From [Leptolyngbya] sp. JSC-1 (GTDB lineage: Bacteria; Cyanobacteriota; Cyanobacteriia; Elainellales; Elainellaceae): DNA of 32,000 nt. Positions within the stretch are counted from its first letter, which is position 1, and each line of letters starts with the position of its first letter. Shown piece after piece: positions 3,126 through 29,340 of this stretch. The stretch is from NCBI GenBank assembly GCA_000733415.1, contig KL662191.1, forward strand, positions 1,814,868 to 1,846,867, read 5' to 3'. The position numbers and the translations under genes were made by a program. The notes below the pieces were generated by a model. It was not told the origin of the DNA. It ran no database searches and saw nothing but the letters and a program-made list of their open reading frames with translations.

Positions 3126-4106
3126 ATGCCAGTCCTAACAACACGCCCCTACAGAGGTGAAGTCGATCTACCACTGATTGTGGACTTACTGAATGCCTGT
3201 GAAGCGGTTGACCGCGAAGACAATTTTTATTCTGCTACTGATCTGGGCCTCAGCTTTGCCGAGCCAGACTTTGACCCAACGCAAAACGTGCGGTTGTGGG
3301 AGGATGAAGCGGGGCGCTTAATTGCCTATGCCGACCTCTGGACTCCGCCTGAACCTTTAGAGTCATTAGATGGATTTCTTTGGTTTCGGGTGCTGCCCAC
3401 CGAGCGTTGGCAAGGCATCGAGAGAGATATACTCGCTTGGGCTGAAGCACGGGTCCATCAGGAAGCCACGGCACACCAACTGCCCGCCAAACTGCAGCTG
3501 AGCTGTCGTGATTGCCAATCAAACTGCATTGTGTTCTATCAACAGCACGGATATAGTTACGAACGTCGTTTCCTAACTATGGCTCGATCGTTGACCGAAC
3601 CGATTCCTGAGCCAATTTTGCCAGAAGGGTTTCAAATTATCCAGACGCGGGGTGTCGAAGATGCGGCTGCGTGGGTAGAGATGTACAATCAAACGTTCAT
3701 CGATCACTGGAATTTCCATCCTCAAACAGTAGCCGAGCACAGCTACTGGCTATCAACGCCGGTTTACTGTCCAGAGCTAGATCTAATTGCCGTTGCTCCA
3801 GACGGAACCTTTGCGGCCTTTTGCCACGGCCATATTGATGCCGAAGAGAACCAACAAAAAGACCGGCGTGAAGGCTGGATTAATAGCTTGGGAACACGGC
3901 GTGGCTTTCGGCGCATGGGGTTGGCAAGAGCCATCCTGCTGGCAGGTTTACAGCGGCTGAAGGCAGCCGGAATGGATACCGCCAAACTGGGTGTGGATAC
4001 CCAAAATCCGAACTCAGCGCAAACGCTCTATGAGTCTGTAGGTTTTCAAACGCGATATGCATCTCTGTCTTATAGCAAGACAATTTCTAGCCAGACAATT
4101 TCTTAA
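3126..4106 (+). CDS. GNAT family N-acetyltransferase, two-domain (mycothiol-synthase-like architecture)
   Basis: ORF track, 326 aa. The C-terminal GNAT motif A is LGTRRGFRRMGLARAILLAGLQRLKAAG, followed by NPNSAQTLYESVGF. The size fits tandem GNAT folds. Confidence 0.85.
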   Translation: MPVLTTRPYRGEVDLPLIVDLLNACEAVDREDNFYSATDLGLSFAEPDFDPTQNVRLWEDEAGRLIAYADLWTPPEPLESLDGFLWFRVLPTERWQGIERDILAWAEARVHQEATAHQLPAKLQLSCRDCQSNCIVFYQQHGYSYERRFLTMARSLTEPIPEPILPEGFQIIQTRGVEDAAAWVEMYNQTFIDHWNFHPQTVAEHSYWLSTPVYCPELDLIAVAPDGTFAAFCHGHIDAEENQQKDRREGWINSLGTRRGFRRMGLARAILLAGLQRLKAAGMDTAKLGVDTQNPNSAQTLYESVGFQTRYASLSYSKTISSQTIS

Positions 4107-4137: not shown

Positions 4138-4347
4138 TCATTTCACCTGCTCGATCGAATATTTCTGGTAGCCTTGTTCTGCCATCCATTTGGATAGCGC
4201 TTTCATTACAACAGGGGCACGACGATCGGGCAGGCGAATCAAACAGCCGTAGTCGAATAGCGGCGTTGGAGCCATTCTCTGAACTTTTTCAGACTCCCAA
4301 AAACTTTGGGGAATTTTGCTGTCAAACGTAATTTTGATGTGCTTCAT
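4138..4347 (-). CDS. Small hypothetical protein (69 aa)
   Basis: ORF track. AGGAAG lies 3 nt upstream of the ATG on the minus strand. No family recognised. Confidence 0.35.
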   Translation of the reverse strand: MKHIKITFDSKIPQSFWESEKVQRMAPTPLFDYGCLIRLPDRRAPVVMKALSKWMAEQGYQKYSIEQVK

Positions 4348-5135
4348 TCTCTTCCTGGGGCGCTAGTCAACTCATGGAGAACACCCTGATGAGAAAGGCA
4401 TTATAAAACAGTTGCCTTTAAACCATGCCTTGAACTAACTCAGCAGAGGAGCTACAGCCTCACATGTAGGGATCTATTCGGTGGTAGTTGCTGCGGTACT
4501 TTCTGAAGTACCTACCGGATTATCTGCTGTGGTACTTTTTGGGGCACTTCCCACTGGGGCAGTGTCTGGGGGATTAGACTGGAACACACCAAATGTAGCC
4601 CAAACCGTGTAGCCGTTATTACGCACTCCTCACCCATATATAAATTTCTACCACAAAAGAACGGTTGACTTCTGTACTTCCTCAAACAAAAAGGGGAGAT
4701 CCAGTAGATCTGGACTATAGCCTTTTCCTGGTTCGATTTAATACTTCTGAAAAATGAAACTACAGAAACCGCCATTTGTAGTAGATCACCTGAGGCTAAT
4801 TTAGCCTTTGTCGGGTTTACTTAAGCCGGAACTTGTGCTGCTGCCGGTGGGGGTGAGCGGTCAGCGGCAGGTTCACTTCACCCTGATTGCAATCTTTCTT
4901 AACCCATCTTGATTAGTTCAGTCAAGAGAGCAGACTTGTGCTAAAAACTCTCAACAAATCCTCATGAACCGTAACCCATTCCGAACAAGAAGCTTAAGGT
5001 CCAAGGAGACCTGATGTTCTCGTGGTAGCTTGTGGCTAGAAGGGAGCCGAATTCAGTTAGGCTCGTCTGCGGCCTTTGAGTTCGTTTGATTGCTTTCGTT
5101 CTATCTCTACTGTCGAACTTGTCGGAGATTCTGCC

Positions 5136-11309: not shown

Positions 11310-11459
11310 TGAGAGCGGCAATAAAAGATCCTGTAATTTGTTGTAGCCACAGGAATCAACCCTACCCTTCGTAAGGGGGCTAGGAGGGATCAATCAGAAT
11401 TTGCGATCTACTGAGGCTGCCCTTGTCCCATATCCCCAGGTTCTATCGCCTCTGATTCT

Positions 11460-12155
11460 CTACTCTTTCACGACCTTATTGATAAACGACGCGAACACGA
11501 TCAGGTTGTCTTGATAATGGCGTGTTCGGTAATCAAACCGACCAGCACAGGTAATCAACCGCAATGTAGGTTCAGGCGTTTTTCTGTAAACGGCATCGGT
11601 AGGGAACGCATCTTTAGGAACTTGCTGAAGCCGTTCCACCTTGAATCTCACGGCCTGCTCAGTAGGATCCATGATTTGGATTTCATCACCGGGTTGCAGC
11701 TCGCGCAGACGATAAAACGCGGCTGGACCTGACGTTGAGTCAAGATGACCCACAACTACGGCAGCTCCCGGCTCCCCAGGACGTGCTCCCCCCATCCACC
11801 ACCCCGCTCTAGCAAAATCCTCTGGAACCTGAAGAGTGCCGTCCGCATTCAGGCCAAGCTGAATTACATGTGTATTGACCTCAATGGCAGGAATATGAAT
11901 CCAGGTGGGGTCAATACCTGAAAAGTCAGGAGTTGCCTCTGCTGCCTGAACTGTCTGAGATGCCGCGAGTTCACCGCTATCAGCTGGTGTGACTGCTGGA
12001 GAGTCCGCAACCGCCGGAGCAGCCGCTGGAGCAGTCACTGGAGAAACAGAATTTGCCACGAGCCGATCAGAATTTACCGCACCCGTGGCCATTCTCTCAG
12101 CCATCCCCACTGTGGTACCCAGCATCATTCCAGACAGGAACGATAAATACAGCAA
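11460..12155 (-). CDS. Class F sortase (transpeptidase)
   Basis: ORF track, 231 aa with a TTG start. It has an N-terminal membrane anchor. The catalytic His context is AAVVVGHLDS, followed by FYRLRELQPGDEI and the catalytic Cys in TLRLITCAG. It matches the class F sortase pattern as I remember it. Confidence 0.8.
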   Translation of the reverse strand: MLYLSFLSGMMLGTTVGMAERMATGAVNSDRLVANSVSPVTAPAAAPAVADSPAVTPADSGELAASQTVQAAEATPDFSGIDPTWIHIPAIEVNTHVIQLGLNADGTLQVPEDFARAGWWMGGARPGEPGAAVVVGHLDSTSGPAAFYRLRELQPGDEIQIMDPTEQAVRFKVERLQQVPKDAFPTDAVYRKTPEPTLRLITCAGRFDYRTRHYQDNLIVFASFINKVVKE

Positions 12156-12176
12156 GAGCCATACGGTACCAGATGC

Positions 12177-12947
12177 TTATAAGGTTGCGGCCAACTCTGC
12201 AATCTCATCCGCACCTCTGATCGGAATTCGTCGATCAAAAGATTGATCAAAATCTTTAATTGAGCGAGCCGTTTCTGTAAGCAATTCTAATGGTGAGAGG
12301 ACTTTACCAATCGCAATCCAGGCCAGAATTAGCGCTAGCAACAGTACGCTAATAATCACTCGAGCGGCCACCAACACCGCTTGATCAATTTCTCTTTTTA
12401 AGTTACTGAGAGAATGCGCGACAACAAACACGCCAAAATTATTGTTTAGTGTTTAAATCGGTTGAGCTAGATAAATGATGGTCTCTCGTTCCGTGGATGT
12501 TTGCCCTTGAATCGGGGATTCAGTTTGAGCTAGCGATCGCAATAGGCTAATATTGCTACTCAAGGCATCGGGTAAAGCAATTGGACTAGTTTGATACACG
12601 TCCCCATTCAGTAGCGTAATTAAAAATTCATCATCATCAGGCACGCTACGAGATAAAAACACATCAAAAATGGCTGCAACATCGTTGCCAAAGGGCTTCC
12701 CGGTCGCCGGGTTGCGTCCATTTGCTAACTTTTGAATTTCCTCAACCTCTTGTTCTAGTGAGCGCTGGACCCGATCCAACAACTGGGCAAACAAAATTTG
12801 CCGGATTGTAAAGATTGCAACAACCGTTGAAAGGGCAATCAGAACCACCAACCAAACTAAAATCCGTGCCCGTGCACCGAGAAAAAATTTGCGCCATCTC
12901 ATGGCTAATACCTTACCCGAAGAGCCTGAAGCACTCAATCGCCTCAC
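12177..12947 (-). pseudogene. Sensor histidine kinase remnant: TM1, periplasmic domain, TM2 and HAMP only, with an in-frame TAA and no kinase core
   Basis: ORFs 12453-12947 and 12177-12431 are in the same frame, separated by a single TAA (12453-12455): ...IIYLAQPI*TLNNNFGVFVVAHS.... The second part ends in the HAMP-like RRIPIRGADEIAELAATL*, at the point where intact kinases continue with FNEML and the HisKA/HATPase domains. Those domains are absent. Confidence 0.65.
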
Positions 12948-13145
12948 GGAATCTCTCAGAGAATATACGTCACTGGGTAATCGGGATGCTTGGGATTAGG
13001 AACCAGCCTTTGGTTCTTGCAGTCCACCAACAGGTCCAGCTTTTCCAATACCACCTGCCCAATCAGTACCTCATCACCGGCTACTAGGGCATCTTCTATG
13101 GTTCGTCCCAACTATAGAGTCCCCTTTTGCCTAGCTTGTTGGACC

Positions 13146-13802
13146 TCAGCGACGGCGGGCTTGCAGCTTGCGGTACACCTCACGGATGTCTACCTGGTGA
13201 TGGGCCAGAGCTACCATCGTGTGATAGAGCAGGTCAGCGACTTCGCCAGCAATTGCGTCTTTATCATCGTCTTTGAACGCCATTACCACCTCTGCCGACT
13301 CTTCGCCGATTTTTTTCAGAATTTTGTTGTCGCCACCCTCGAATAACTTGCAGGTGTAGGAGTCTGGGTTGGGATGATCGCGGCGGTCGCAAATTACCTC
13401 AAACACCTGAGACAGTGTATCGGCTGGGGGAGCCTTGATCGACCCCTCGATTTGGTGGAAGCAGCTTCGTTCGCCGGTGTGGCAGGCAATGTCGCCAATT
13501 TGCTCGACGGTGACTAGAATCGCGTCGCTGTCGCAGTCATAGCGCATGGATTTGACCTGCTGCAAATGCCCCGAAGTTGCACCCTTATGCCAAAATTCTT
13601 GCCGCGAGCGGCTCCAAAACCAGGTTTCGCCGGTCTCCAGGGTTTTCTGGAGTGATTCCTGATTCATCCAGGCCATCATCAGCACCGTCCCATCTAAGTA
13701 GTCCTGAACAATGGCAGGCACCAAACCCTGTTCGTTGTAACGGATTTGCTCGACTGGAATGGCAGACTGGAAGGTTACAGCAGGAGTAGACATAGTTTTC
13801 AA
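13146..13802 (-). CDS. hisIE: Bifunctional phosphoribosyl-AMP cyclohydrolase / phosphoribosyl-ATP pyrophosphatase
   Basis: ORF track, 218 aa. The HisI core is GLVPAIVQD...[10 protein letters not shown]...[19 protein letters not shown]...[27 protein letters not shown]. The HisE part is [26 protein letters not shown]...EVADLLYH. Confidence 0.95.
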
Positions 13803-13803
13803 T

Positions 13804-13842
13804 GGGTTTCAACGGTTTTAACGGGTTTTAACGGGTTTCAAC
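13804..13842. repeat. Tandem motif of about 10 bp x4 (gggtttYaac) with phased A/T tracts, abutting the hisIE start
   Basis: Read directly: gggtttcaac ggttttaac gggttttaac gggtttcaac. It starts 2 nt from the hisIE start codon, inside the hisIE/hemL divergent region. Confidence 0.85.
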
Positions 13843-14026
13843 GTCTTGTAATAGCAGGTATTTTCATTATCGATGAAGGCACGACCGAGATAATCAATCG
13901 CTTCACTGGATCAGAGGGTCGATTAGGGCACTGCCGATTTAGGATAAGTAGAAGTGAGTCAATCAAGTCATCAATCGCTGTGACTTTGGATCGATAGTCG
14001 GTTGAAGCGTATAAGAGGAGAGAATT

Positions 14027-15325
14027 TTGGTTACTACGCCCCTTAAGACTACAAAATCAGAAGAAATCTTTGCAGCCGCTCAAAAGCTGATGCCCGGTGG
14101 GGTTAGCTCTCCGGTACGGGCCTTCAAATCCGTGGGTGGGCAGCCGATTGTGTTTGACCATGTCAAGGGTGCCTATATCTGGGATGTGGACGGCAATCAG
14201 TATATTGATTACGTCGGCACCTGGGGACCGGCCATCTGCGGCCATGCCCATCCAGAGGTGTTGGCAGCTCTGCGGGACGCACTCGAAAAGGGTACCAGCT
14301 TTGGCGCACCCTGCTATTTGGAAAACGTGCTGGCAGAAATGGTAATCGACGCTGTTCCCAGCATTGAAATGGTGCGGTTTGTCAACTCTGGTACTGAAGC
14401 CTGTATGGGTGTGCTGCGGCTGATGCGAGCCTTTACCGGACGCGACAAGCTGATCAAGTTTGAAGGCTGCTACCACGGCCATGCCGATATGTTTCTGGTA
14501 AAAGCCGGTTCCGGGGTGGCGACGCTGGGCTTACCCGATTCCCCTGGTGTGCCCAAATCCACCACAGCCAACACCCTGACCGCCCCCTACAACGATCTAG
14601 ACGCCGTCAAGCAGTTGTTTGAAGAAAATCCGGACCAAATCGCGGGCGTGATCCTAGAACCCGTCGTCGGCAATGCCGGATTCATTCCACCCGATGCTGG
14701 TTTTCTAGAAGGACTGCGCCTTTTGACCCAAGAGCATGGTGCGCTGCTAGTATTCGACGAAGTGATGACCGGCTTCCGGATTGCCTACGGCGGCGCGCAA
14801 GAGAAATTTGGCATCACGCCGGATCTGACCACGCTAGGCAAAATCATCGGCGGCGGTTTGCCGGTCGGGGCCTATGGCGGACGCAAGGAGATTATGCAGC
14901 TCGTGGCTCCTGCCGGTCCAATGTATCAGGCGGGCACACTTTCCGGGAATCCCCTCGCTATGACGGCTGGGATCAAAACCCTAGAGCTATTGCAGCGTCC
15001 GGGCACCTATGAGCAGCTCGACCGGATTACCAAAAAACTGTCGGATGGCCTGCTGCAAATCGCTCAAGAAACCGGCCACGCCGCCTGCGGTGGGCAAATC
15101 AGCGGCATGTTTGGCTTCTTCTTTACCGAAGGCCCGGTTCACAACTACGAAGACGCCAAAAAATCCGACACCGCCAAGTTCGGACGCTTCCATCGCGGCA
15201 TGCTAGAGCACGGCATCTATCTTGCCCCCTCCCAGTTTGAGGCTGGATTCACCTCCCTCGCCCACACCGACGAGGACATTGACCGCACCCTAGAAGCCGC
15301 TAGAGCCGTAATGGCAAGCCTTTAA
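14027..15325 (+). CDS. hemL: Glutamate-1-semialdehyde 2,1-aminomutase
   Basis: ORF track, 432 aa with a TTG start. Recognisable segments are [34 protein letters not shown] and [10 protein letters not shown]...[20 protein letters not shown] (PLP lysine context). Confidence 0.95.
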
Positions 15326-15621: not shown

Positions 15622-16212
15622 TTACTGGTTTTGCCTAAACTCTCTAACTGCTTGAGGTCGGGACTCAATCGCTGCGCACTGAGCCAGTCGTTCAAGATTG
15701 ATACCCTTAACGAATTGGCTTTTGTTTGCTTTTTGGTAGTTCGTTAGAACCAATTGATAGACACTGATCTCACCATCTTCCCAAAACCAGACCTCTTGAA
15801 CTCCTAATGCCTTGTATCGCTTAAGTTTGTCGGGTCCACCGCTGGTGATGATAACTTCTATTGCCAAGTCTGGAATTGATTTCCTTACACCAAAACAATA
15901 GGACTCATCTGCTTGAGCCGAAGCTACCGCTTCCTTTTCTTGAGAGAACGAACCCGTGGCAACAAACTCCATTCCCTGATTGAGCATGAAATCTTCGAGT
16001 AGATAACCAATATTGCCTTTCACAATTTCATGTTCTGGTGCAGTAGACAAAATCTCTAGCTCTCCCTCGTAGTAGAACAGGCGAACTCCAGGTGAGCCAG
16101 CGAAACCACTTTGAATCGCCTTAAAACTCTCCCAACTCACACCAGTTTGGATAAATCGCTGTTCAGCGGGTTTGCCTAGAAGCTGGGTCATCATGGTTGC
16201 CCTCTGCTGCAA
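15622..16212 (-). CDS. Uma2 family (DUF820) putative PD-(D/E)xK endonuclease
   Basis: ORF track, 196 aa; the start may be the MMTQ methionines at 16194/16191. ...YYEGELEILSTAPEHE...ADESYCFG...PDLAIEVIITSGGPDKLKRYKALGVQEVWFWEDGEISVYQL fits the Uma2 pattern (E...D-x-EV core, then Y...G-V-x-E-Y/VW). Confidence 0.85.
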   Translation of the reverse strand: MQQRATMMTQLLGKPAEQRFIQTGVSWESFKAIQSGFAGSPGVRLFYYEGELEILSTAPEHEIVKGNIGYLLEDFMLNQGMEFVATGSFSQEKEAVASAQADESYCFGVRKSIPDLAIEVIITSGGPDKLKRYKALGVQEVWFWEDGEISVYQLVLTNYQKANKSQFVKGINLERLAQCAAIESRPQAVREFRQNQ

Positions 16213-22361: not shown

Positions 22362-23027
22362 ATGCCTTCCTCGTTGCCCCAGTTGCCTCATAATGTCCTC
22401 GCGCCTCTGCAATGGCAATCAGCTACGTGGGAGGATTATTTGGCATACCGCGATCGACCGACCGATCAACGAATGCGGCTCTACTTCAACGGTCAAGCGC
22501 TTTTAGTCGATATGGGTAGCGAAGGAATCGATCATGCCAGCACCAGCGATCTGTTTTTGCTGCTGATCTACGTTTGGGTGAATCACCATCAGCCTAACTT
22601 AGCGGTCGGTTCCTTTGGCCGCTGTTTGCTAGAAAAACTGGGCTACCGAGCGGCTTCACCGGATTTGGTGCTGTATTTAGGTGACAGCATCCCACGACGC
22701 GAAGCTGGAGACCTGCGGCGAATTGATCTAAACGTTTGGCCTGTACCTGACTTGGTGGGTGAAATCGCTGATACCTCGCTAGCAAGTGACCTCGACGAAA
22801 AGAAGAAGCTCTACGCCGATCTACAAATTCCAGAATATTGGGTGATCGACGTGCAGGGAAACCGGGTGTTGGCGTTTCGGTTGCAGCCAGAAGGAGTGTA
22901 TTGTCAGTTGATTCAGTCAGTAACCTTGCCTGGATTGTCAATTCACCTCTTGGAACAGGCACTAGAGCGTTTAGGTGAAGAGCCGAATTTTGCCGTTGCT
23001 AACTGGTTTGGGCAGCAAATTCAATAA
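22362..23027 (+). CDS. Uma2 family (DUF820) putative PD-(D/E)xK endonuclease
   Basis: ORF track, 221 aa. ...ATWEDYLAYRD...RLYFNGQALLVDMGSEGIDHA...PDLVGEIADTSLASDLDEKKKLYADLQIPEYWVIDVQGNRVLAFRL fits the Uma2 pattern (D...E-I/V core, then Y...G-I-x-EYW). Confidence 0.85.
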   Translation: MPSSLPQLPHNVLAPLQWQSATWEDYLAYRDRPTDQRMRLYFNGQALLVDMGSEGIDHASTSDLFLLLIYVWVNHHQPNLAVGSFGRCLLEKLGYRAASPDLVLYLGDSIPRREAGDLRRIDLNVWPVPDLVGEIADTSLASDLDEKKKLYADLQIPEYWVIDVQGNRVLAFRLQPEGVYCQLIQSVTLPGLSIHLLEQALERLGEEPNFAVANWFGQQIQ

Positions 23028-23067
23028 CTTTCTGAATGCAGAAGGTTAGAATCTGGGAAGCCTCTGC

Positions 23068-25419
23068 ATGCTCCGTGAAATGGTTGCTCCCTATATTGTT
23101 CGTCCGGTTGCTGAAGATTTTTTGATTACGCTTGGCCATGCCTTGAAAGCGTCCGCTGAGTCGCCGCTGGTGTTTCATGCTTGGGGTGTGGGGGGCGTGG
23201 GTAAATCAACGCTGCTGAAGAAAGCCGGAGAAGCAAATCCGCAGTGGGCAACAGCAACCGTCTCCTTTGGAATGACAGAAGGGATTGACGAGCCAATTGG
23301 TTTAATGCAGACGCTGCACGCACAGTTGCGCCAAATTTTGACCTCAGCTTCTGCAAAGCCCGATCCATTTAGCGAACGTTATCAGCAGTATTTCGACACG
23401 ATTCACCAGCTAAAGACCGAATCGGAGGATGGCAAGGGAGCCGCGACGCCAGAGCAAATTGAGTTAGTCAAAAAAGGCGTGGGTTGGGCAGCCAAAGGAG
23501 CTGGAGAGTTTTTCCTGCCGAGCATTGCTGCGGAAACGCTGGGCAAACTTGGCGAGGCAACGGTAGAGGGAGCAAGACTAGCGCTCTCGGAGAAGGATCG
23601 GCTGGTGGATTTGGTGCAGCGCCATCGGGCTACGAAGGACAAGCGCGAGTTGCAGGAGTTGATTTTGCAGCCCGTGCCCAAACTAACGGCAGCATTGGTA
23701 GCAAGCTTAATGCTATGGGGAAAACAGCGGCCTATCTTACTGCTGCTCGACACCTACGAAAAAGCGCCTGTTGATATTGATAACTGGCTGTGGCGTTTGC
23801 TGTTGGGCAATCATCCAGAGTTGCGAACCGTGCCGGTGCGGGTGTTGGTGATGGGGCGTCACTGCATTTTGAATAGTGAAGGCTGGCGTAAGCTGCAACA
23901 AGATCGGGCGATTGTGCATGAACGTGCGTTGGAACAATTTGACTCAGCTCAAACGCAGGACTATCTACAGCGAATTGGCATCACCGATCCGGTTAAGATG
24001 CAGCAAATCTGGCAGGTGACGAAGGGGTTGCCCTATTACCTCAACTGGATTCGGGAGCAAAAGGAAAAACGGCGCGAGCTAAACTTTGCGGAGGGCAATC
24101 AGGAAATTGCGAAACTGTTGCTGCAAGGGTTAGACCAAACGCGCCAAAAGGTAATTCAGCTTGCCGCCTGCTGTCGCTGGTTTGACCGATCGCTGCTGGA
24201 ATTTTTGGCTCAGCAGTATGGGTTGGCGATTGAGTTTGACTGGCTGGTGCAGCAGAGCTTTGTGGAGATGATTGGACATCGCTATCGATTGGATGATGTG
24301 GCGCGAGATGTGTTTCGGCAGGCATTTTGGCAGAGCGATCGGGCAGGATTTGAGCGGATATTTGATTTATTGATGCGCTATTTCAAGAGTCTTTCCGATC
24401 GAGAAGTGCCGTCGAATGTCGCTCCGCCTGATCGATACGAAAACCCCGACTGGCGCGACCTGCGAACCGAATACCTCTACTATTTGCTGTTTACTCGCCA
24501 ACAAAATCTCCAGTTAACTTGGCTAACGCATTTGCTGGAAGCCCGCTACTTCAATCAAGATGAGCTGGTGCAGGTGCCATTGCAAAGCTTGGACTCGGAA
24601 GCAGATCTGGCAAACCATCCCTATCTCAGCTACCCGACTCGTCAGTTTTTACAGCAGTTGCGTCCGGCAATTGAGCACGGCTGGGCAGTGCTGGAGCAAG
24701 ACCCAATCGATTATCCCTATAACCAGGAGAAACATGGCCTATCGCGTGCAGCAACCCACAAAGCGATCGACCTCTGTTTAGGGCAAATCGAGCAGATGAC
24801 AGGCTTAGCTAAATTTGCGGCGTTGTTCTACAGATCGAAGCGCTGTCCCGAAGCTCAAAGGTTAGAGTGGTTGCAAAAAGCCAAAGCACAAGCGGAACAA
24901 ATCGCTACTGCCACCCATCCCGACTTTAGCAGCGGCTTGTTTCTGTGGAAAATTGGCAATGCGCTATCAGACTTAGGCCGCGAAGAAGAGGCGATTTCCA
25001 GCTATGACCAAGCGATTGCGATTAAACCGGACAAATACAACGCTTGGAACAACCGAGGTGATGTCTTACAAGCGCTAGGACGCAACGACGAAGCGCTCGA
25101 CAGCTACGATCGAGCCATTGCAATCAATCCCGACTATCGCTTTCCTCACAAAGGTCGGGGCACGGTGCTGATGCAGTTAGGTCGCTATGACGAAGCCCTG
25201 GCTAGTTATGATCGCGCCATTGCCCTCAAACCCGGTGACGCAGAAGCCCATTACGACAAAGCCCGCTGTCTGGCTCTTCAGGGCAACATTGCCGCCACCG
25301 TTGAAACCCTGCAACAGGCGATTGCCCTCAACCCCGACTACCGCGACCTGGCCCAAATGGAAGCTGACTTTGACCGAATACGGAGCGAAGAGCGGTTTCA
25401 GGCGCTGATCGATGCGTAA
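23068..25419 (+). CDS. STAND-type P-loop NTPase (NB-ARC-like) with C-terminal TPR repeats and no N-terminal effector domain
   Basis: ORF track, 783 aa. Walker A HAWGVGGVGKSTLL begins about residue 38. Walker B is ILLLLDTYE, followed by VRVLVMGR, then LEQFDSAQTQDYL and TKGLPYYLNWI (GxP-like). About five TPRs fill the last 175 aa or so (AISSYDQAIAIKPD..., ALDSYDRAIAINPD..., ALASYDRAIALKPG..., LQQAIALNPD...). Confidence 0.85.
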   Translation: MLREMVAPYIVRPVAEDFLITLGHALKASAESPLVFHAWGVGGVGKSTLLKKAGEANPQWATATVSFGMTEGIDEPIGLMQTLHAQLRQILTSASAKPDPFSERYQQYFDTIHQLKTESEDGKGAATPEQIELVKKGVGWAAKGAGEFFLPSIAAETLGKLGEATVEGARLALSEKDRLVDLVQRHRATKDKRELQELILQPVPKLTAALVASLMLWGKQRPILLLLDTYEKAPVDIDNWLWRLLLGNHPELRTVPVRVLVMGRHCILNSEGWRKLQQDRAIVHERALEQFDSAQTQDYLQRIGITDPVKMQQIWQVTKGLPYYLNWIREQKEKRRELNFAEGNQEIAKLLLQGLDQTRQKVIQLAACCRWFDRSLLEFLAQQYGLAIEFDWLVQQSFVEMIGHRYRLDDVARDVFRQAFWQSDRAGFERIFDLLMRYFKSLSDREVPSNVAPPDRYENPDWRDLRTEYLYYLLFTRQQNLQLTWLTHLLEARYFNQDELVQVPLQSLDSEADLANHPYLSYPTRQFLQQLRPAIEHGWAVLEQDPIDYPYNQEKHGLSRAATHKAIDLCLGQIEQMTGLAKFAALFYRSKRCPEAQRLEWLQKAKAQAEQIATATHPDFSSGLFLWKIGNALSDLGREEEAISSYDQAIAIKPDKYNAWNNRGDVLQALGRNDEALDSYDRAIAINPDYRFPHKGRGTVLMQLGRYDEALASYDRAIALKPGDAEAHYDKARCLALQGNIAATVETLQQAIALNPDYRDLAQMEADFDRIRSEERFQALIDA
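25326..25404 (+). repeat. 79-bp direct repeat, copy A (3' coding end of the STAND/TPR gene)
   Basis: cctcaaccccgactaccgcgacctGgcccaaatggaagcTgactttgaccgaatacggagcgaagagcggtttcaggcg recurs at 25896-25974 with 2 mismatches. Confidence 0.9.
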
Positions 25420-25435
25420 AGTCCTTTTCCTTCGG

Positions 25436-25663
25436 TTAAGAGGATTGCCCTAAATTTCGTCTTTTATTAATCTCCTTGAGAAGTTCTGCGAAGTTTTCTT
25501 GCTCAGCTTCTTCACTCGAAAATACAGGAGGCAATGTTGCCAAAACGGGTTCAGTTGCCAGTTTATCCATCAGAGCATAAAAAGCTTGCTGATCTTCTCG
25601 ATGCTCTAGCAGATAGGAGATTAAGACTTTGCGGTTCATGCTGTGGAAATCAGGCTGACTCAT
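25436..25663 (-). CDS. Small hypothetical protein (75 aa), second gene of a coupled pair (DUF6887-like from memory)
   Basis: ORF track. Its ATG overlaps the upstream gene's TGA (ATGA at 25660-25663). The N-terminus MSQPDFHSMNRKVLISYLLEHREDQQAFYALMDKL resembles a recurrent small cyanobacterial protein. Confidence 0.65.
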   Translation of the reverse strand: MSQPDFHSMNRKVLISYLLEHREDQQAFYALMDKLATEPVLATLPPVFSSEEAEQENFAELLKEINKRRNLGQSS

Positions 25664-25884
25664 AGAAATCTCCGCTCACCGTTAAGGCTGATTAGAACAA
25701 TCGTTTCTTCACCTGCCAAAATGAACACATCGCCTGTCCGCTCATCTAGACGAATGATAAAAATGGGCAAATACAGCTTGGTTAAGTTATAGCAAACGAT
25801 GAAGCTGTTCAGCGCTTGAACCTGGGTAGGAAGTGCAGGAATAGGTTTGCCCCCAAGAAACACAGCAGACATTAGTTTGCCCAT
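25660..25884 (-). CDS. Small hypothetical protein (74 aa), first gene of a coupled pair (DUF6888-like from memory)
   Basis: ORF track. ...LTKLYLPIFIIRLDERTGDVFILAGEETIVLISLNGERRFL resembles a recurrent small cyanobacterial protein. The start may instead be Met5 at 25872. Confidence 0.6.
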   Translation of the reverse strand: MGKLMSAVFLGGKPIPALPTQVQALNSFIVCYNLTKLYLPIFIIRLDERTGDVFILAGEETIVLISLNGERRFL

Positions 25885-25895
25885 TCCTGCCGTAG

Positions 25896-25974
25896 CCTCA
25901 ACCCCGACTACCGCGACCTAGCCCAAATGGAAGCCGACTTTGACCGAATACGGAGCGAAGAGCGGTTTCAGGCG
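25896..25974 (+). repeat. 79-bp direct repeat, copy B (orphan TPR-gene 3' end)
   Basis: It is 77/79 identical to 25326-25404 and remains open in the TPR frame. It reads ...LNPDYRDLAQMEADFDRIRSEERFQAIGE and ends at its own TAG (25984-25986). Confidence 0.9.
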
Positions 25975-26017
25975 ATAGGAGAATAGACTGAAATTAATAG
26001 CACTAGAGGCAGGCCAC

Positions 26018-26242
26018 ATGACTGAAATTCGCCAGCGCATTGACCAGTATCTCGATCAGTTATCAAATGAGCGACTCAACCTTGTTGCTGATTTTTTGGC
26101 CTACTTAGCCGATCGAGAAAGCGAAGCCGCCACTCAAGAGTTATTGAACATCCCTGGTTTTATTGAATCGTTTGAGAAAGGCAAACAGCAAATCGCTGAA
26201 GGAAAAGTGAGAAACTGGAGAACGATTCGCACGGATGTATGA
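26018..26242 (+). CDS. Putative type II antitoxin (partner of the RelE/ParE-like remnant)
   Basis: ORF track, 74 aa. Its stop overlaps the start region of the downstream RelE/ParE-like reading frame (ATG 26235, TGA 26240-26242), which is the typical toxin-antitoxin gene layout. I could not assign a family. Confidence 0.55.
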   Translation: MTEIRQRIDQYLDQLSNERLNLVADFLAYLADRESEAATQELLNIPGFIESFEKGKQQIAEGKVRNWRTIRTDV

Positions 26243-26431
26243 AATCGTTTTGTCGGCTGAAGCCGAAGCTGTATTCGCAACTGCTGATAGAGTCTTTGCC
26301 AAGAAAATAGCTAAATGTCTTGAGCAGCTTGAGCACAATCCTAAATTTCACCCCAATATCAGACCCCTAGCGAGGCAAATCAACAAGTTCAAGTTATAAC
26401 CATTGCTCATCGAAAAGATGTCTATGAATAG
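26235..26431 (+). pseudogene. RelE/ParE-family toxin remnant with an internal deletion and frameshift
   Basis: The frame from the ATG at 26235 reads MYEIVLSAEAEAVFATADRVFAKKIAKCLEQLEHNPKFHPNIRPLARQINKFKL* (stop 26397-26399). A different frame reads EANQQVQVITIAHRKDVYE* to 26431, which is the canonical RelE/ParE C-terminus. The central RVGDYRV-type core is missing. Confidence 0.6.
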
Positions 26432-26433
26432 GT

Positions 26434-29340
26434 TCAAGCCCAGGCAGGTTCTTTCCGCATCAGCGCTTCCACTTCTTCCCGATCCAGCGGTTTAGCAAAG
26501 AAAAAGCCCTGTCCGTACTCTGCACCGAGCGAACGCAACTGCCGCAACTGTTCGGCCAATTCCACGCCTTCCGCGATCACATTCATGCCCAAATTGTGCG
26601 CCAACGAAACAATCGCTCGGACAATTTCGGCACTTTCACTGTCGGTACTCATGTGGCTGATAAACGACTGATCGATTTTGACGGTATCAATCGGGAAACG
26701 GTGCAGATAGCTGAGTGACGAATAGCCAGTGCCAAAGTCATCGATCAGCAACTGGACTCCCATCGCTTTGAGCTGCTCTAGCATCACCTTGGCCGCCTCT
26801 GGGTTCTCCATGATTGCGCTTTCGGTAATTTCCAGCTTCAGGTTGAGGTTCCAGGCGTTTTGGAGGTCGGGGTGACGCAGCAACTGGCTGATCTGGTCCA
26901 ACAAACTGGGCTGGGAAAACTGCTTAGTCGATAGATTGACGCTGACCGAAAGCGGCATATCGGGTGAAAATTGCCGCTGCCACTGACCCAACTGCCGACA
27001 GGCTTCAGTAAGAATCCACTGGCCTAAGGGCACAATCAGACCCGTATCTTCGGCTAGGGGAATAAACTCGGTGGGCGGAATCAGTCCCCGCTCTGGGTGT
27101 TGCCAGCGCACCAAAGCCTCAAAGCCGCTAATTTTACCCGTTGCCAGCGCCACAATCGGCTGATACTGAATCCGAAATTCCTGCGGTTGTAGCGGACTGG
27201 CACTAGCGGCCACGGCTCGCCGCAAATCGGTTTCTAACTGCAACAACGCCACTGCCCGCTTGTGCATCGCCATATCGAATAGGGCATGACGCGAACGACC
27301 CAGCGTTTTCGCTCGGTACATGGCCGTATCGGCGTTGCGCAGCAAATCTTCCGGACGGTCACAGTCGGCTTCGTTCATGGCAATGCCAATGCTGGCCGAA
27401 GTAAACACTTCTTGGCCGCCGAGGTTGAAGGGCGCTTGCAGCGCTTGGTGAATCCGTTCGGCTAGGTGGCAGGCATCGTCGGCATCCCGGATGCCCTCTA
27501 GCAGCACCGTAAATTCATCGCCACCCAAGCGGGCAATGGTATCCACCGAGCGCAGACAGGCTTCCAAACGACGGGCAATCGCGATCAGCAACTGGTCGCC
27601 GACAATATGGCCCAAGCTATCGTTCAGCACCTTAAACCGGTCCAGGTCCATGAACAGAACGGCAAACCGATAGCCAGGAATCCGCCTACTGCGACCAATC
27701 GCCTGCTGCAACCGATCCATAAACAAAGCACGATTGGCTAGTCCAGTAAGGCTGTCGTGAAGGGCGTGGTGCAAGAGTTGCTGCTCGGCCCGTTTGCGTT
27801 CGGTGATGTCGGTTTGAGAACCGGCGATGCGATAGGCTTTCTGATTACTGTCGCATACGGCAAAGCCGCGACTCAGCATCCAGCGATAGGAACCATCTCG
27901 GTGGCGCATCCGGTGCTCGATTTCAAAATGCCGCGTTTGGCCTTGGAGGTGGGCTGTGATTTGCGCCTCTAGCCATTTGGTTTCGTCTGGATGTACCCGC
28001 TTGAACCACTCTTCGGGCCGGTTGCCGATCTCCCAATCCTCGTAGCCCAGCATTGCTTTCCAGCGGGGCGAGAAGTAGATTTGATCGGTGCGTAGATTCC
28101 AGTCCCAGAGGCCATCATTGGCTCCGTGCACGGCAAGGGCATAGCGTTCTTGGCTTTCGCGCAGTGCTTCTTCAAACTGTTTGCGGTCGGTAATGTCGAG
28201 TCCGACAAAAACGGCGGCCTGATTTTGCGAATACTTTTGCGCCGCTAGCAAATAGCTGCGGGTCGCGCCATCCACCTGCGCCGCCACCTCAACCGTACTG
28301 GACTCCACCGGACTGGCCAAGAACTGCTGCACAAACGCGGCAAATCCGGGACTGGCTTCCATAAAGCCCAGCTTTTTGCCAATAAAGTCCTCTGGGCGCA
28401 GTTTGAAGGTTTCCGCCAGGTAGCGATTAATGCCCAGGTATTCCAGATCCGAACTAAACCAAGACACACAGCCCGGAACCGCATCCAGCACCGCCTGAAG
28501 CTGATCTTTTGCCGCCTGAAGCTCTTGGCGGGCCCGCTTGCGATCGCTGACATCCCGACCAAAGACAGCAACGCCGGTGATCTGCTGATTCTCGCGAATC
28601 GGGTTGAAAGAAATTTCCACATCTGCCGGTAAATCAGGCACATCAAAATGCAGCTCGATCGCAAATCGCTCTCCGGCCAAGGCGCGATCATAACAGTCTT
28701 TCCAGAGGGGCTGCTGTGCCACCGGCAAACAGGCTACCAAATTGAGGCCAGGGCACAAGTTGAGGCTATACGCTTTCGCAAATTGCTGTTGGCAGGCCGA
28801 GTTCCAGACAATCAATTCGTACTGGTGATTGACCGACCAAACCGCATCCAGCGTGTGCTCGATTAAAGCCGTTAAATTTGCCGCTTTGGGATCCATGGGA
28901 GTTGTCACGTTCAGGGTTGATTTTACTAGTGTGATTAACTCTGGAGTGGCAATTTGACGACTAGGCAACACTAATACTGGTAAGCTTCCTACCTGCTGTA
29001 AGAGTTCCGTCAGGGCCGATGTTTGCTGAGTGGGAAGGGAATCAAATGTAATCAGCAAGTCCCATTTTTGATTCGCTAGGGCTAGGGAAAGCGTTTCGAA
29101 TGAATCAACCCATTGCCAGCCCAGAGGACAGCCGTTTTCTACCAATCCCCGACTGATCTCTGCTGCCTCTTCAATTGAATTGACCCAAATTAATCCCTGC
29201 CGCAGCGATTGACTCACCGCATTCCCTCCTTGCACCCTGATGGCAGTAATGGCGTATCCGTAAATGAAGTAGCTGAAATAGCTGAAGTAGCTGAAGTAGA
29301 TGGTTGATTGAACGTCCTCGCCGCAGTAATGAGCAGTCAC
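26434..29340 (-). CDS. Signalling protein: receiver-like N-domain, PAS domains, GGDEF and EAL (c-di-GMP turnover)
   Basis: ORF track, 968 aa. The GGDEF site is ARLGGDEF, with RSVD five residues upstream (an RxxD I-site). EAL-domain motifs are GFEALVRW and DDFGTGYSSL. At least two PAS-like blocks carry DITDRK/DVSDRK linkers. The true start is uncertain, because the first 40 codons or so cross a 9-bp repeat. Confidence 0.9.
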   Translation of the reverse strand: MTAHYCGEDVQSTIYFSYFSYFSYFIYGYAITAIRVQGGNAVSQSLRQGLIWVNSIEEAAEISRGLVENGCPLGWQWVDSFETLSLALANQKWDLLITFDSLPTQQTSALTELLQQVGSLPVLVLPSRQIATPELITLVKSTLNVTTPMDPKAANLTALIEHTLDAVWSVNHQYELIVWNSACQQQFAKAYSLNLCPGLNLVACLPVAQQPLWKDCYDRALAGERFAIELHFDVPDLPADVEISFNPIRENQQITGVAVFGRDVSDRKRARQELQAAKDQLQAVLDAVPGCVSWFSSDLEYLGINRYLAETFKLRPEDFIGKKLGFMEASPGFAAFVQQFLASPVESSTVEVAAQVDGATRSYLLAAQKYSQNQAAVFVGLDITDRKQFEEALRESQERYALAVHGANDGLWDWNLRTDQIYFSPRWKAMLGYEDWEIGNRPEEWFKRVHPDETKWLEAQITAHLQGQTRHFEIEHRMRHRDGSYRWMLSRGFAVCDSNQKAYRIAGSQTDITERKRAEQQLLHHALHDSLTGLANRALFMDRLQQAIGRSRRIPGYRFAVLFMDLDRFKVLNDSLGHIVGDQLLIAIARRLEACLRSVDTIARLGGDEFTVLLEGIRDADDACHLAERIHQALQAPFNLGGQEVFTSASIGIAMNEADCDRPEDLLRNADTAMYRAKTLGRSRHALFDMAMHKRAVALLQLETDLRRAVAASASPLQPQEFRIQYQPIVALATGKISGFEALVRWQHPERGLIPPTEFIPLAEDTGLIVPLGQWILTEACRQLGQWQRQFSPDMPLSVSVNLSTKQFSQPSLLDQISQLLRHPDLQNAWNLNLKLEITESAIMENPEAAKVMLEQLKAMGVQLLIDDFGTGYSSLSYLHRFPIDTVKIDQSFISHMSTDSESAEIVRAIVSLAHNLGMNVIAEGVELAEQLRQLRSLGAEYGQGFFFAKPLDREEVEALMRKEPAWA
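29265..29300. repeat. 9-bp tandem repeat x4 (tgaaRtagM)
   Basis: Read directly: tgaagtagc tgaaatagc tgaagtagc tgaagtaga. On the minus strand this encodes FSYFSYFSYF at the annotated N-terminus of the GGDEF/EAL ORF. Confidence 0.85.

Follow-up and report, generated by a model that had tools for sequence, protein, structure and literature searches.

Little is understood about how small gene cassettes without a recombinase of their own, for example, toxin-antitoxin pairs, come to occupy new places in the chromosome. Direct repeats derived from the 3' end of a gene are the classic footprint of attachment (att) sites, and repeats of this kind enclose a cassette of two small genes, DUF6888 and DUF6887, in the cyanobacterium [Leptolyngbya] sp. 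JSC-1. The cassette lies at the end of a gene for a nucleoside triphosphatase/tetratricopeptide repeat (NTPase/TPR) protein within a stretch of 32,000 nucleotides (nt) (GenBank assembly GCA_000733415.1, contig KL662191.1, positions 1,814,868 to 1,846,867 of the forward strand), referred to here as the window and numbered from its first letter. The explanation preferred here, to which moderate confidence is attached, is that a mobile two-gene cassette of ∼0.45 to 0.55 kb, without a recombinase, was inserted at the end of the TPR gene in an old event that duplicated 80 to 95 nt of the target. The DUF6888/DUF6887 family offers a tractable case of such movement: a mobile unit of ∼0.5 kb, duplications of ∼70 to 90 nt, and neighboring genes that are left intact.

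Islands inserted by tyrosine integrases into the 3' ends of tRNA, tmRNA, and protein genes resemble this locus in that their repeats stem from the target 3' end and the target is kept intact. In contrast to these islands, the cassette carries no integrase and measures only ∼0.5 kb, and its repeats differ at every locus, vary in length, and may stem from a 5' end or from intergenic DNA. The attC cassettes of integrons, including the toxin-antitoxin cassettes of superintegrons, are likewise small and often without a promoter, with direct repeats of ∼60 to 130 nt and usually a co-oriented upstream gene. Unlike those cassettes, the unit described here has repeats that consist of host coding sequence without an attC hairpin, and there is no intI gene, no array, and no R''/R' core site. 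Transposons, insertion sequences, and miniature inverted-repeat transposable elements (MITEs) differ from the cassette, which has neither terminal inverted repeats nor a transposase and the duplication of which is not of fixed length (41 to 135 nt). Drawing on established knowledge of these pathways, a further parallel may be templated insertion by fork stalling and template switching (FoSTeS) or microhomology-mediated break-induced replication (MMBIR), or else homology-facilitated illegitimate recombination in naturally transformable bacteria, which would account for insertion without dedicated machinery, for variable, locus-specific duplications, and for later spread by homologous recombination. 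Processes of these types are not known to favor one cassette family, and five events with duplications of 69 to 86 nt suggest a ruler which such mechanisms do not predict.

Architecture of the repeat-flanked cassette

The host gene (positions 23068 to 25419, plus strand), taken from the list of open reading frames (ORFs) and assigned by the Pfam TPR families, encodes a 783-aa NTPase/TPR protein with a C-terminal TPR end-of-group domain. This domain is identified by the NCBIfam model NF047558 (TPR_END_plus), which matches residues 727 to 781 with 89.5 bits at a cut-off of 32. No Pfam family matched the NTPase part of the protein, and its identity is suggested by an N-terminal GxxGxGKS motif and by the AAA_16 match of the counterpart in a relative (L165, see below).

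The end of this gene is present twice. A repeat search of the window returns a 79-nt direct repeat with both copies in the same orientation at a spacing of 570 nt: copy A at positions 25326 to 25404 (plus strand; LNPDYRDLAQMEADFDRIRSEERFQA) and copy B at positions 25896 to 25974 (plus strand). The copies are identical at 77 of 79 positions, and both mismatches, G/A at position 25350 (CTG/CTA) and T/C at position 25365 (GCT/GCC), are synonymous and lie at third codon positions. The 39-nt core of the repeat occurs exactly twice in the window and finds no match in 100 shuffles. The repeated segment encodes the core of the TPR end-of-group domain. Repeat search and scripted comparison thus confirm the repeat, its two synonymous differences, and the tails of its copies, all of which had been described in a sequence-only reading of this stretch.

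Copy A forms the 3' coding end of the live TPR gene, which is completed by the five-codon tail LIDA* (positions 25405 to 25419, plus strand) to give ...RFQALIDA*. Copy B runs into the tail IGE* (positions 25975 to 25986, plus strand) and ends as ...RFQAIGE* with a TAG at positions 25984 to 25986. It is open in the TPR frame yet part of no ORF of at least 40 aa and is a relic, not a gene. According to the alignments, this noncoding relic of the TPR 3' end has kept the original junction to a downstream antitoxin gene.

The interval between the copies (positions 25405 to 25895, minus strand), interpreted as the inserted cassette, comprises 491 bp without terminal inverted repeats. Its GC content is 44%, compared to 52.6% for the TPR gene; 21 G+C are counted in positions 25441 to 25500 versus 33 in positions 25321 to 25380. 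Between the repeats lie as the only genes the overlapping minus-strand pair DUF6888 and DUF6887. The content of the interval, its higher AT content, and these two counts had been given correctly before. The first gene of the pair, DUF6888 (positions 25660 to 25884, minus strand), is a 74-aa ORF with a conserved core from about residue 17 and matches Pfam PF21828 with an E value of 5e-23 (81.1 bits; cut-off, 27). The second gene, DUF6887 (positions 25436 to 25663, minus strand), overlaps the first by 4 nt and matches Pfam PF21826 with an E value of 4.6e-16 (59.3 bits; cut-off, 24.2).

Recurrence of the cassette and age of the duplication

Scans of species-representative genomes and metagenomes gave 160 cassette loci; 107 nonredundant cassettes, all outside the genome of the window, were used to compare the 600 bp upstream with the 600 bp downstream on the same strand (match of at least 40 bits), with controls shifted by 1.8 or 2.7 kb. 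Flank repeats are found in 17 of the 107 cassettes (16%) versus 7 of 363 shifted controls (2%; Fisher P = 3e-7). The best counterpart of the window is locus L064, in which the last 21 codons, the stop codon, and the next 3 nt of a gene for a C39-peptidase ATP-binding cassette (ABC) exporter are duplicated (69 nt, 97%). Its geometry is that of the window, with the relic upstream of DUF6888 and the intact gene convergent downstream; L140 is an orthologous, more decayed version. In L032, 77 nt of the 3' region of a clpB-like gene (57 to 133 nt before the stop codon) recur upstream of the cassette (81%; E value, 7e-17), and the downstream gene of L149 has 86 nt of its 5' end duplicated. Besides the ABC exporter, clpB, and the 5' end, a fourth locus of this kind, at nagZ, is more complex. 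L044 is a complex locus with three copies of two convergent gene ends. Intergenic repeats of 72 to 84 nt abut the unit in L135 (81/83 nt) and L133, and L023, L025, and L047 have a 41-nt terminator-like repeat. Duplication lengths range overall from about 40 to 135 nt, and the five best-bounded events measure 69, 77, 79 to 82, 81 to 84, and 86 nt. The expectation that further copies of the pair might be flanked by duplicated gene ends is thus largely borne out by L064/L140, L032, L044, and L149.

A freshwater subfamily carries a unit of 450 to 470 bp that is 93 to 97% identical in four unrelated contexts, with the similarity ending a few nucleotides from the two genes. As judged from these genomic contexts, the cassette family is shown to be mobile, and the loci above show it to be bracketed repeatedly by locus-specific duplications.

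No dedicated machinery was found. Ten large ORFs of the window gave no integrase or transposase domain, and the interval holds none, in agreement with what had been seen by eye. No terminal inverted repeats are present at the insert ends of three loci, DNA folding z-scores of −0.18 to −0.54 give no attC-like hairpin in the repeats, and no core sequence is common to the repeats of L064, L032, L135, L149, and L044. As possible vehicles, plasmids yielded no nucleotide match and viral contigs no relatives. The analogy with tRNA-targeting islands drawn in the sequence-only reading is therefore not upheld, as the repeats are locus specific, lack a core or hairpin, and include a 5' gene end and intergenic DNA. 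The unit at this locus is regarded as a small selfish cassette in a hotspot; it is not a site-specific element of the tRNA-island type. Two candidate boundary signals were rejected: GGGGTT stands close to the junction in L064 and in the window and is absent elsewhere, and HIP1 (GCGATCGC), which sits at the edges of the repeats in some Nostoc loci and some freshwater ones, occurs only twice in the 32-kb window, away from the repeat.

Three groups of relatives inform on the history of the locus itself. A metagenome contig (L001), reached via a 93% identical DUF6888, has the gene order GGDEF/EAL, antitoxin-like gene, copy B', DUF6888, DUF6887, copy A', Uma2, ABC, and FtsX. Here, the body of the TPR gene (corresponding to window positions 23040 to 25275) is deleted and both repeat copies are retained; they are 88% identical over 82 nt and 87.3% identical over the common 79 nt, and the interval between them is 94 to 99% identical to that of the window. 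L001 further shows a 13-nt tandem duplication (GTTGAGGCTTACA / GTTGAAGCTTACA) at positions 4161 to 4186, exactly at the inner boundary of copy B', which the window does not have. Leptolyngbya sp. IPPAS B-1204 (L165), reached via a 99% identical GGDEF/EAL protein, has flanks 95 to 97% identical to those of the window and a hotspot allele of 82 to 88% identity with the same architecture and identical junctions. Its repeat copies are only 76% alike, and its NTPase/TPR gene has a different N-terminal part. DUF6888 of L165 is interrupted by a 157-bp insert (positions 11504 to 11660) with internal hairpins (CCCTCCTTAAATAAGGAGGG, CCCCCTTTTTAAGGGGG) and TAAG on both sides, which is probably a MITE.

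The third group (L167 to L169), with a GGDEF/EAL protein 87% identical to that of the window, has no cassette and a single TPR end (NPNYRELVQMEADFDSVRSDERFRAVVEESS*). An antitoxin/ParE pair lies 30 nt beyond this end, which is itself part of a fusion with Uma2. In L167 (positions 11374 to 11622) and alike in L168 and L169, the fusion is an 82-aa chimeric ORF in which the first 34 Uma2 codons are linked to the last 31 TPR codons by a 51-nt filler that includes a 16-nt tandem duplication. These loci look like sites without the cassette and are possibly unoccupied. Of the empty site that had been predicted, they show a single TPR end without a cassette; they are not a clean case, since the flanks are only about 80% identical to those of the window and the deletion ends ∼4 nt from the repeat boundary. 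TPR orthologs as a further source of an empty site are at best 64% identical in the protein collection and stand in unrelated contexts, and other GGDEF/EAL orthologs (L170 to L177) have lost synteny on the relevant side. No exact-protein record was found for the proteins of the window. A 66-aa gene stands in front of each of the 64% identical TPR homologs.

The window, L001, and L165 share the same junctions and are diverged from one another, which makes the duplication old; the comparison of these sequences shows it to predate the split of the three alleles. Over 79 nt, copy B of the window is 97.5% identical to its own copy A, 92.4% to copy A of L001, and 86.1% to copy B of L001. States are shared within genomes: the two copies of the window have AGCGAAGAG, those of L001 have AGCGACGAG, and those of L165 have AGTGACGAG, which is also the state of L167. 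Copy B is thus closer to the A-type copies than to its own positional ortholog, which points to gene conversion and concerted evolution and indicates that copy A overwrote copy B recently in the lineage of the window. Gene conversion explains the 77/79 identity, and the near-identity of the copies is no evidence of a recent insertion. The locus also illustrates that flanking repeats may be nearly identical as a result of gene conversion and need not stem from a recent event. The insertion at the 3' end of the gene as proposed from the sequence is partly supported: it stands with regard to inserted mobile DNA, a duplicated host-gene end, and an intact TPR gene, and its footprint is not recent. 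Conversion would have homogenized only the 79 nt that stayed similar, and the original duplication would have run to about the stop codon, that is, over 80 to 95 nt.

The same reading had the element bring or regenerate a replacement 3' end; it probably did not bring one. Both copies in L064 carry the host stop codon, so nothing was brought there, and the ALIDA* tail of the window is probably native because it fits the family consensus RFQALI; the C-terminal cap consensus ...DFDxIRxDxRFQALI is present in most of 120 homologs. The IGE* tail of copy B aligns only loosely with TGIAE* of L165 and AVVEESS* of L167 (∼10/18 nt match by eye), to which it possibly corresponds. Both tails would accordingly be native and diverged.

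Within the repeat, a core AAATGGAAGCCGACTTTGA, which codes for MEADFD, lies at window positions 25353 to 25372 and 25923 to 25942 and is also present in L001, L165, and L167. It is kept, including synonymous sites, in all seven TPR-end copies of the four genomes, the exceptions being three single changes (GCT in copy A of the window, GAG in copy A of L165, and T for the first A in copy B of L001). The sequence around this core has diverged by 15 to 28%.

Explanations for the duplicated gene end

According to the explanation by old insertion with target duplication, the cassette would have entered in the distant past, right at the end of the TPR gene, and the last 80 to 95 nt of this gene would have been duplicated; copy A would since have ended the live gene, with copy B keeping the old junction to the antitoxin gene. 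The first insertion would have been a host-mediated illegitimate event, in which either a long staggered break was repaired by fill-in or replication switched templates to the cassette and back. Events of this type would duplicate the target with no need for element ends. Afterwards, homologous recombination would spread the allele, gene conversion would act on the copies, and insertions sparing both flanking functions would survive. The duplication spares the upstream gene and the sequence into the downstream gene, which may explain the survival of such events. The pair itself would be kept as an addiction-type, toxin-antitoxin-like module despite flanking repeats able to delete it.

Several observations weigh against this explanation. 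About 84% of the cassettes have no flank repeat, an example being L002, in which the cassette is wedged between ndhN and ldpA, and neither the flanks of L058, which are a MITE-like dispersed element, nor L022, a partial tandem cassette, represent target duplications. The flanks of the freshwater subfamily are rich in dispersed short repeats, and the 3'-terminal motif of the unit is present in the upstream copy as well in L127 and L138. For these loci, tandem duplication followed by deletion is possible, the 3' motif in the upstream copy being in its favor; it fits the flanks as well as target duplication does, and the same may hold for a target preference. None of the events offers a clean occupied/empty pair with high flank identity, so that duplication at the moment of insertion is not demonstrated. 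The deletion breakpoint of L167 lies ∼4 nt from the left boundary of the repeat in the window, which may mark a shared fragile point or a locus derived from copy B or from a filled ancestor. The clustering of five events at 69 to 86 nt is explained by none of the host pathways. Finally, the toxin-antitoxin-like nature of the pair is putative and drawn from architecture, copy number, and context.

Other routes to the same arrangement have to be compared with this one. In a Campbell-type integration, circular or concatemeric DNA carrying the cassette and a TPR-end segment from another TPR_END gene would have entered by a single crossover at the 3' end of the present gene, with one copy remaining on either side; the replacement 3' end of the sequence-only reading corresponds to this route. 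TPR_END_plus is widely conserved, so homology with other TPR genes would be available; recombination between the copies is active, the copies in the older alleles match at only 76 to 87%, as expected had they been different from the start, and the 3' end of the unit within the upstream copy of L127 and L138 would be expected from a circle of unit plus flank. This route is nevertheless unlikely, since a TPR_END stands beside the cassette only in this one locus lineage among ∼160 loci. The other events duplicate unrelated genes (ABC exporter, clpB, and a 5' end), each of which would need its own prior capture, and the two L064 copies finish alike, with the host stop codon and the next 3 nt. L064 also speaks against a second route, the stacking of two alleles, in that its relic abuts the native downstream gene and the same geometry is thus found at loci without a second module. 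Under stacking, a strain with TPR and cassette would have met a strain with TPR, antitoxin, and toxin; the incoming DNA would have been anchored by GGDEF/EAL homology and joined illegitimately inside the TPR end, and copy B would have arrived with the antitoxin and toxin genes. Relatives indeed carry different toxin-antitoxin modules downstream of GGDEF/EAL, whole-allele exchange by homologous recombination is seen, and the TPR end of L167 starts at nearly the same nucleotide with a toxin-antitoxin pair directly after it. The toxin-antitoxin genes of L167, however, have no nucleotide similarity to those of the window, and stacking is regarded as improbable to much the same degree.

The start of copy B lies at most 11 nt from the cassette start codon in three alleles, the copy spans the same 26 codons as copy A, and its spacing to the antitoxin gene equals that at the single TPR end of L167. 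These features, together with the recurrence of the order relic, cassette, intact gene at unrelated genes, make it extremely improbable that copy B is the tail of a separate, truncated TPR paralog unrelated to the cassette, even though TPR_END tails are common in cyanobacterial genomes and TPR truncation has occurred at this locus in L001 and L167. A site-specific recombinase supplied in trans, with the repeats as attL and attR of a cis-mobilizable element, is highly improbable as well: the window holds no integrase, there is no inverted-repeat or hairpin signature, and the repeats of independent events (41 to 135 nt) have no common core. The idea draws on the likeness of repeats made of a gene 3' end to an att footprint and on the deletion endpoint of L167 at the repeat-boundary nucleotides, which hints at a preferred break point. 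The DUF6888/DUF6887 pair might itself be an autonomous minimal mobile element, with the two proteins directing integration via breaks staggered by ∼70 to 95 bp. Although very unlikely, such an element would explain the clustering at 69 to 86 nt, the absent terminal repeats, and the movement of a ∼450-bp unit between contexts, and it would constitute DNA integration machinery of a new kind. Should the duplications arise at insertion, they would point either to a host pathway that operates on a defined length scale or to an activity residing in the two uncharacterized proteins.

The two-gene module and its hotspot

The pair resembles chromosomal type II toxin-antitoxin cassettes, such as ParDE and RelBE, in its two small codirectional genes with a 4-nt overlap and in its multicopy, patchy occurrence. 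Further likenesses are its position in a hotspot beside ParE and PIN modules, its persistence despite flanking repeats able to delete it, and its decay in some strains, seen in the MITE-like insert of L165 and in the neighboring toxin pseudogene. In contrast to known systems, the larger, strongly conserved gene comes first, and sequence, profile, and fold similarity to known toxins or antitoxins is lacking. The proteins of 74 and 75 aa are encoded by small, adjacent genes with a conserved order across loci, as in type II systems; family or fold homology to such systems is not found. Pfam and NCBIfam return only DUF families for the two proteins, PADLOC returns none, and the literature yielded no mention of DUF6888 or DUF6887. 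DUF6887 directly follows DUF6888 in nearly all of the ∼160 loci, which are all cyanobacterial where a taxon is named, and the DUF6888 family is small, a set of 1.84 billion representatives containing only 239 of its clusters (50% identity). The AlphaFold2 model of DUF6888 (mean predicted local distance difference test score [pLDDT], 84) consists of one helix and four strands, and the invariant motifs are RxDERTG and LAGEE; DUF6887 is modeled as three helices. Foldseek finds no fold in the PDB with an E value of <0.3 for either model, the best match of DUF6888 being Ugi (E value, 0.33).

A promoter scan of positions 25250 to 26450 found none. In 76 of ∼92 loci (L003 to L164), the upstream neighbor has the same orientation as the cassette, at a median gap of 166 nt, and the cassette may rely on read-through transcription. 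The downstream neighbor is unbiased, with 48 co-oriented and 44 convergent cases in the same loci, and a preference for convergent 3' ends is rejected on these counts. In several subfamilies (L064, positions ∼4004 to 4018; L140; L135, positions ∼4040 to 4050), the DUF6888 frame contains no ATG, GTG, or TTG before the conserved core, and AGGAG is followed after 5 to 8 nt by ATT ATx. This arrangement suggests a noncanonical ATT start and hence low translation of DUF6888. In the window, an 11-nt inverted repeat (positions 25835 to 25845 and 25880 to 25890; L001, positions 4195 to 4242) pairs the region of the annotated DUF6888 ATG with a downstream CCTATTCCTGC and may form a hairpin for translational control. 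The same start region contains an imperfect direct repeat with a distance of 30 nt (GGGCAAAC...), and a small duplication is suggested as the origin of the 14-residue N-terminal extension of DUF6888.

The locus is part of a larger variable region. Window positions ∼22430 to 26700 are 90 to 99% identical to L001, compared to 73 to 85% for the surrounding genes, and the near-conspecific L165 carries a more distant allele of the hotspot. Both observations together show that whole hotspot alleles are exchanged between lineages by homologous recombination, and the L001-like block indicates that such an exchange has taken place recently. The NTPase/TPR gene is, in the alleles compared, highly polymorphic (window, positions 23068 to 24960; L165, positions 12022 to 14960, with calls of 450 and 529 aa; L001, junction at positions 4803/4804), a pattern typical of defense-type genes.

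Toxin-antitoxin modules downstream of the GGDEF/EAL gene vary, with ParE in L167, PIN in L175, and a decayed ParE in the window. Next to the relic lies a 74-aa antitoxin-like gene (positions 26018 to 26242, plus strand), an ORF that is conserved in L001 and L165 and matches no family. It is followed by a decayed ParE-type toxin gene (positions 26235 to 26399, plus strand) with a 63-bp deletion relative to L165 in the alignment; the reconstructed toxin matches PF05016 (ParE_toxin) with an E value of 7.5e-12. As the window, L001, and L165 all retain the antitoxin-like gene intact and the toxin has decayed, this gene is considered an orphan antitoxin. The ParE-type toxin gene of L165 is itself frameshifted. 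The window further contains two genes of the Uma2 family (putative restriction endonuclease-like) at positions 22362 to 23027 and 15622 to 16212, and the one adjoining the TPR gene also matches the PADLOC candidate defense families PDC-S03 and PDC-S17.

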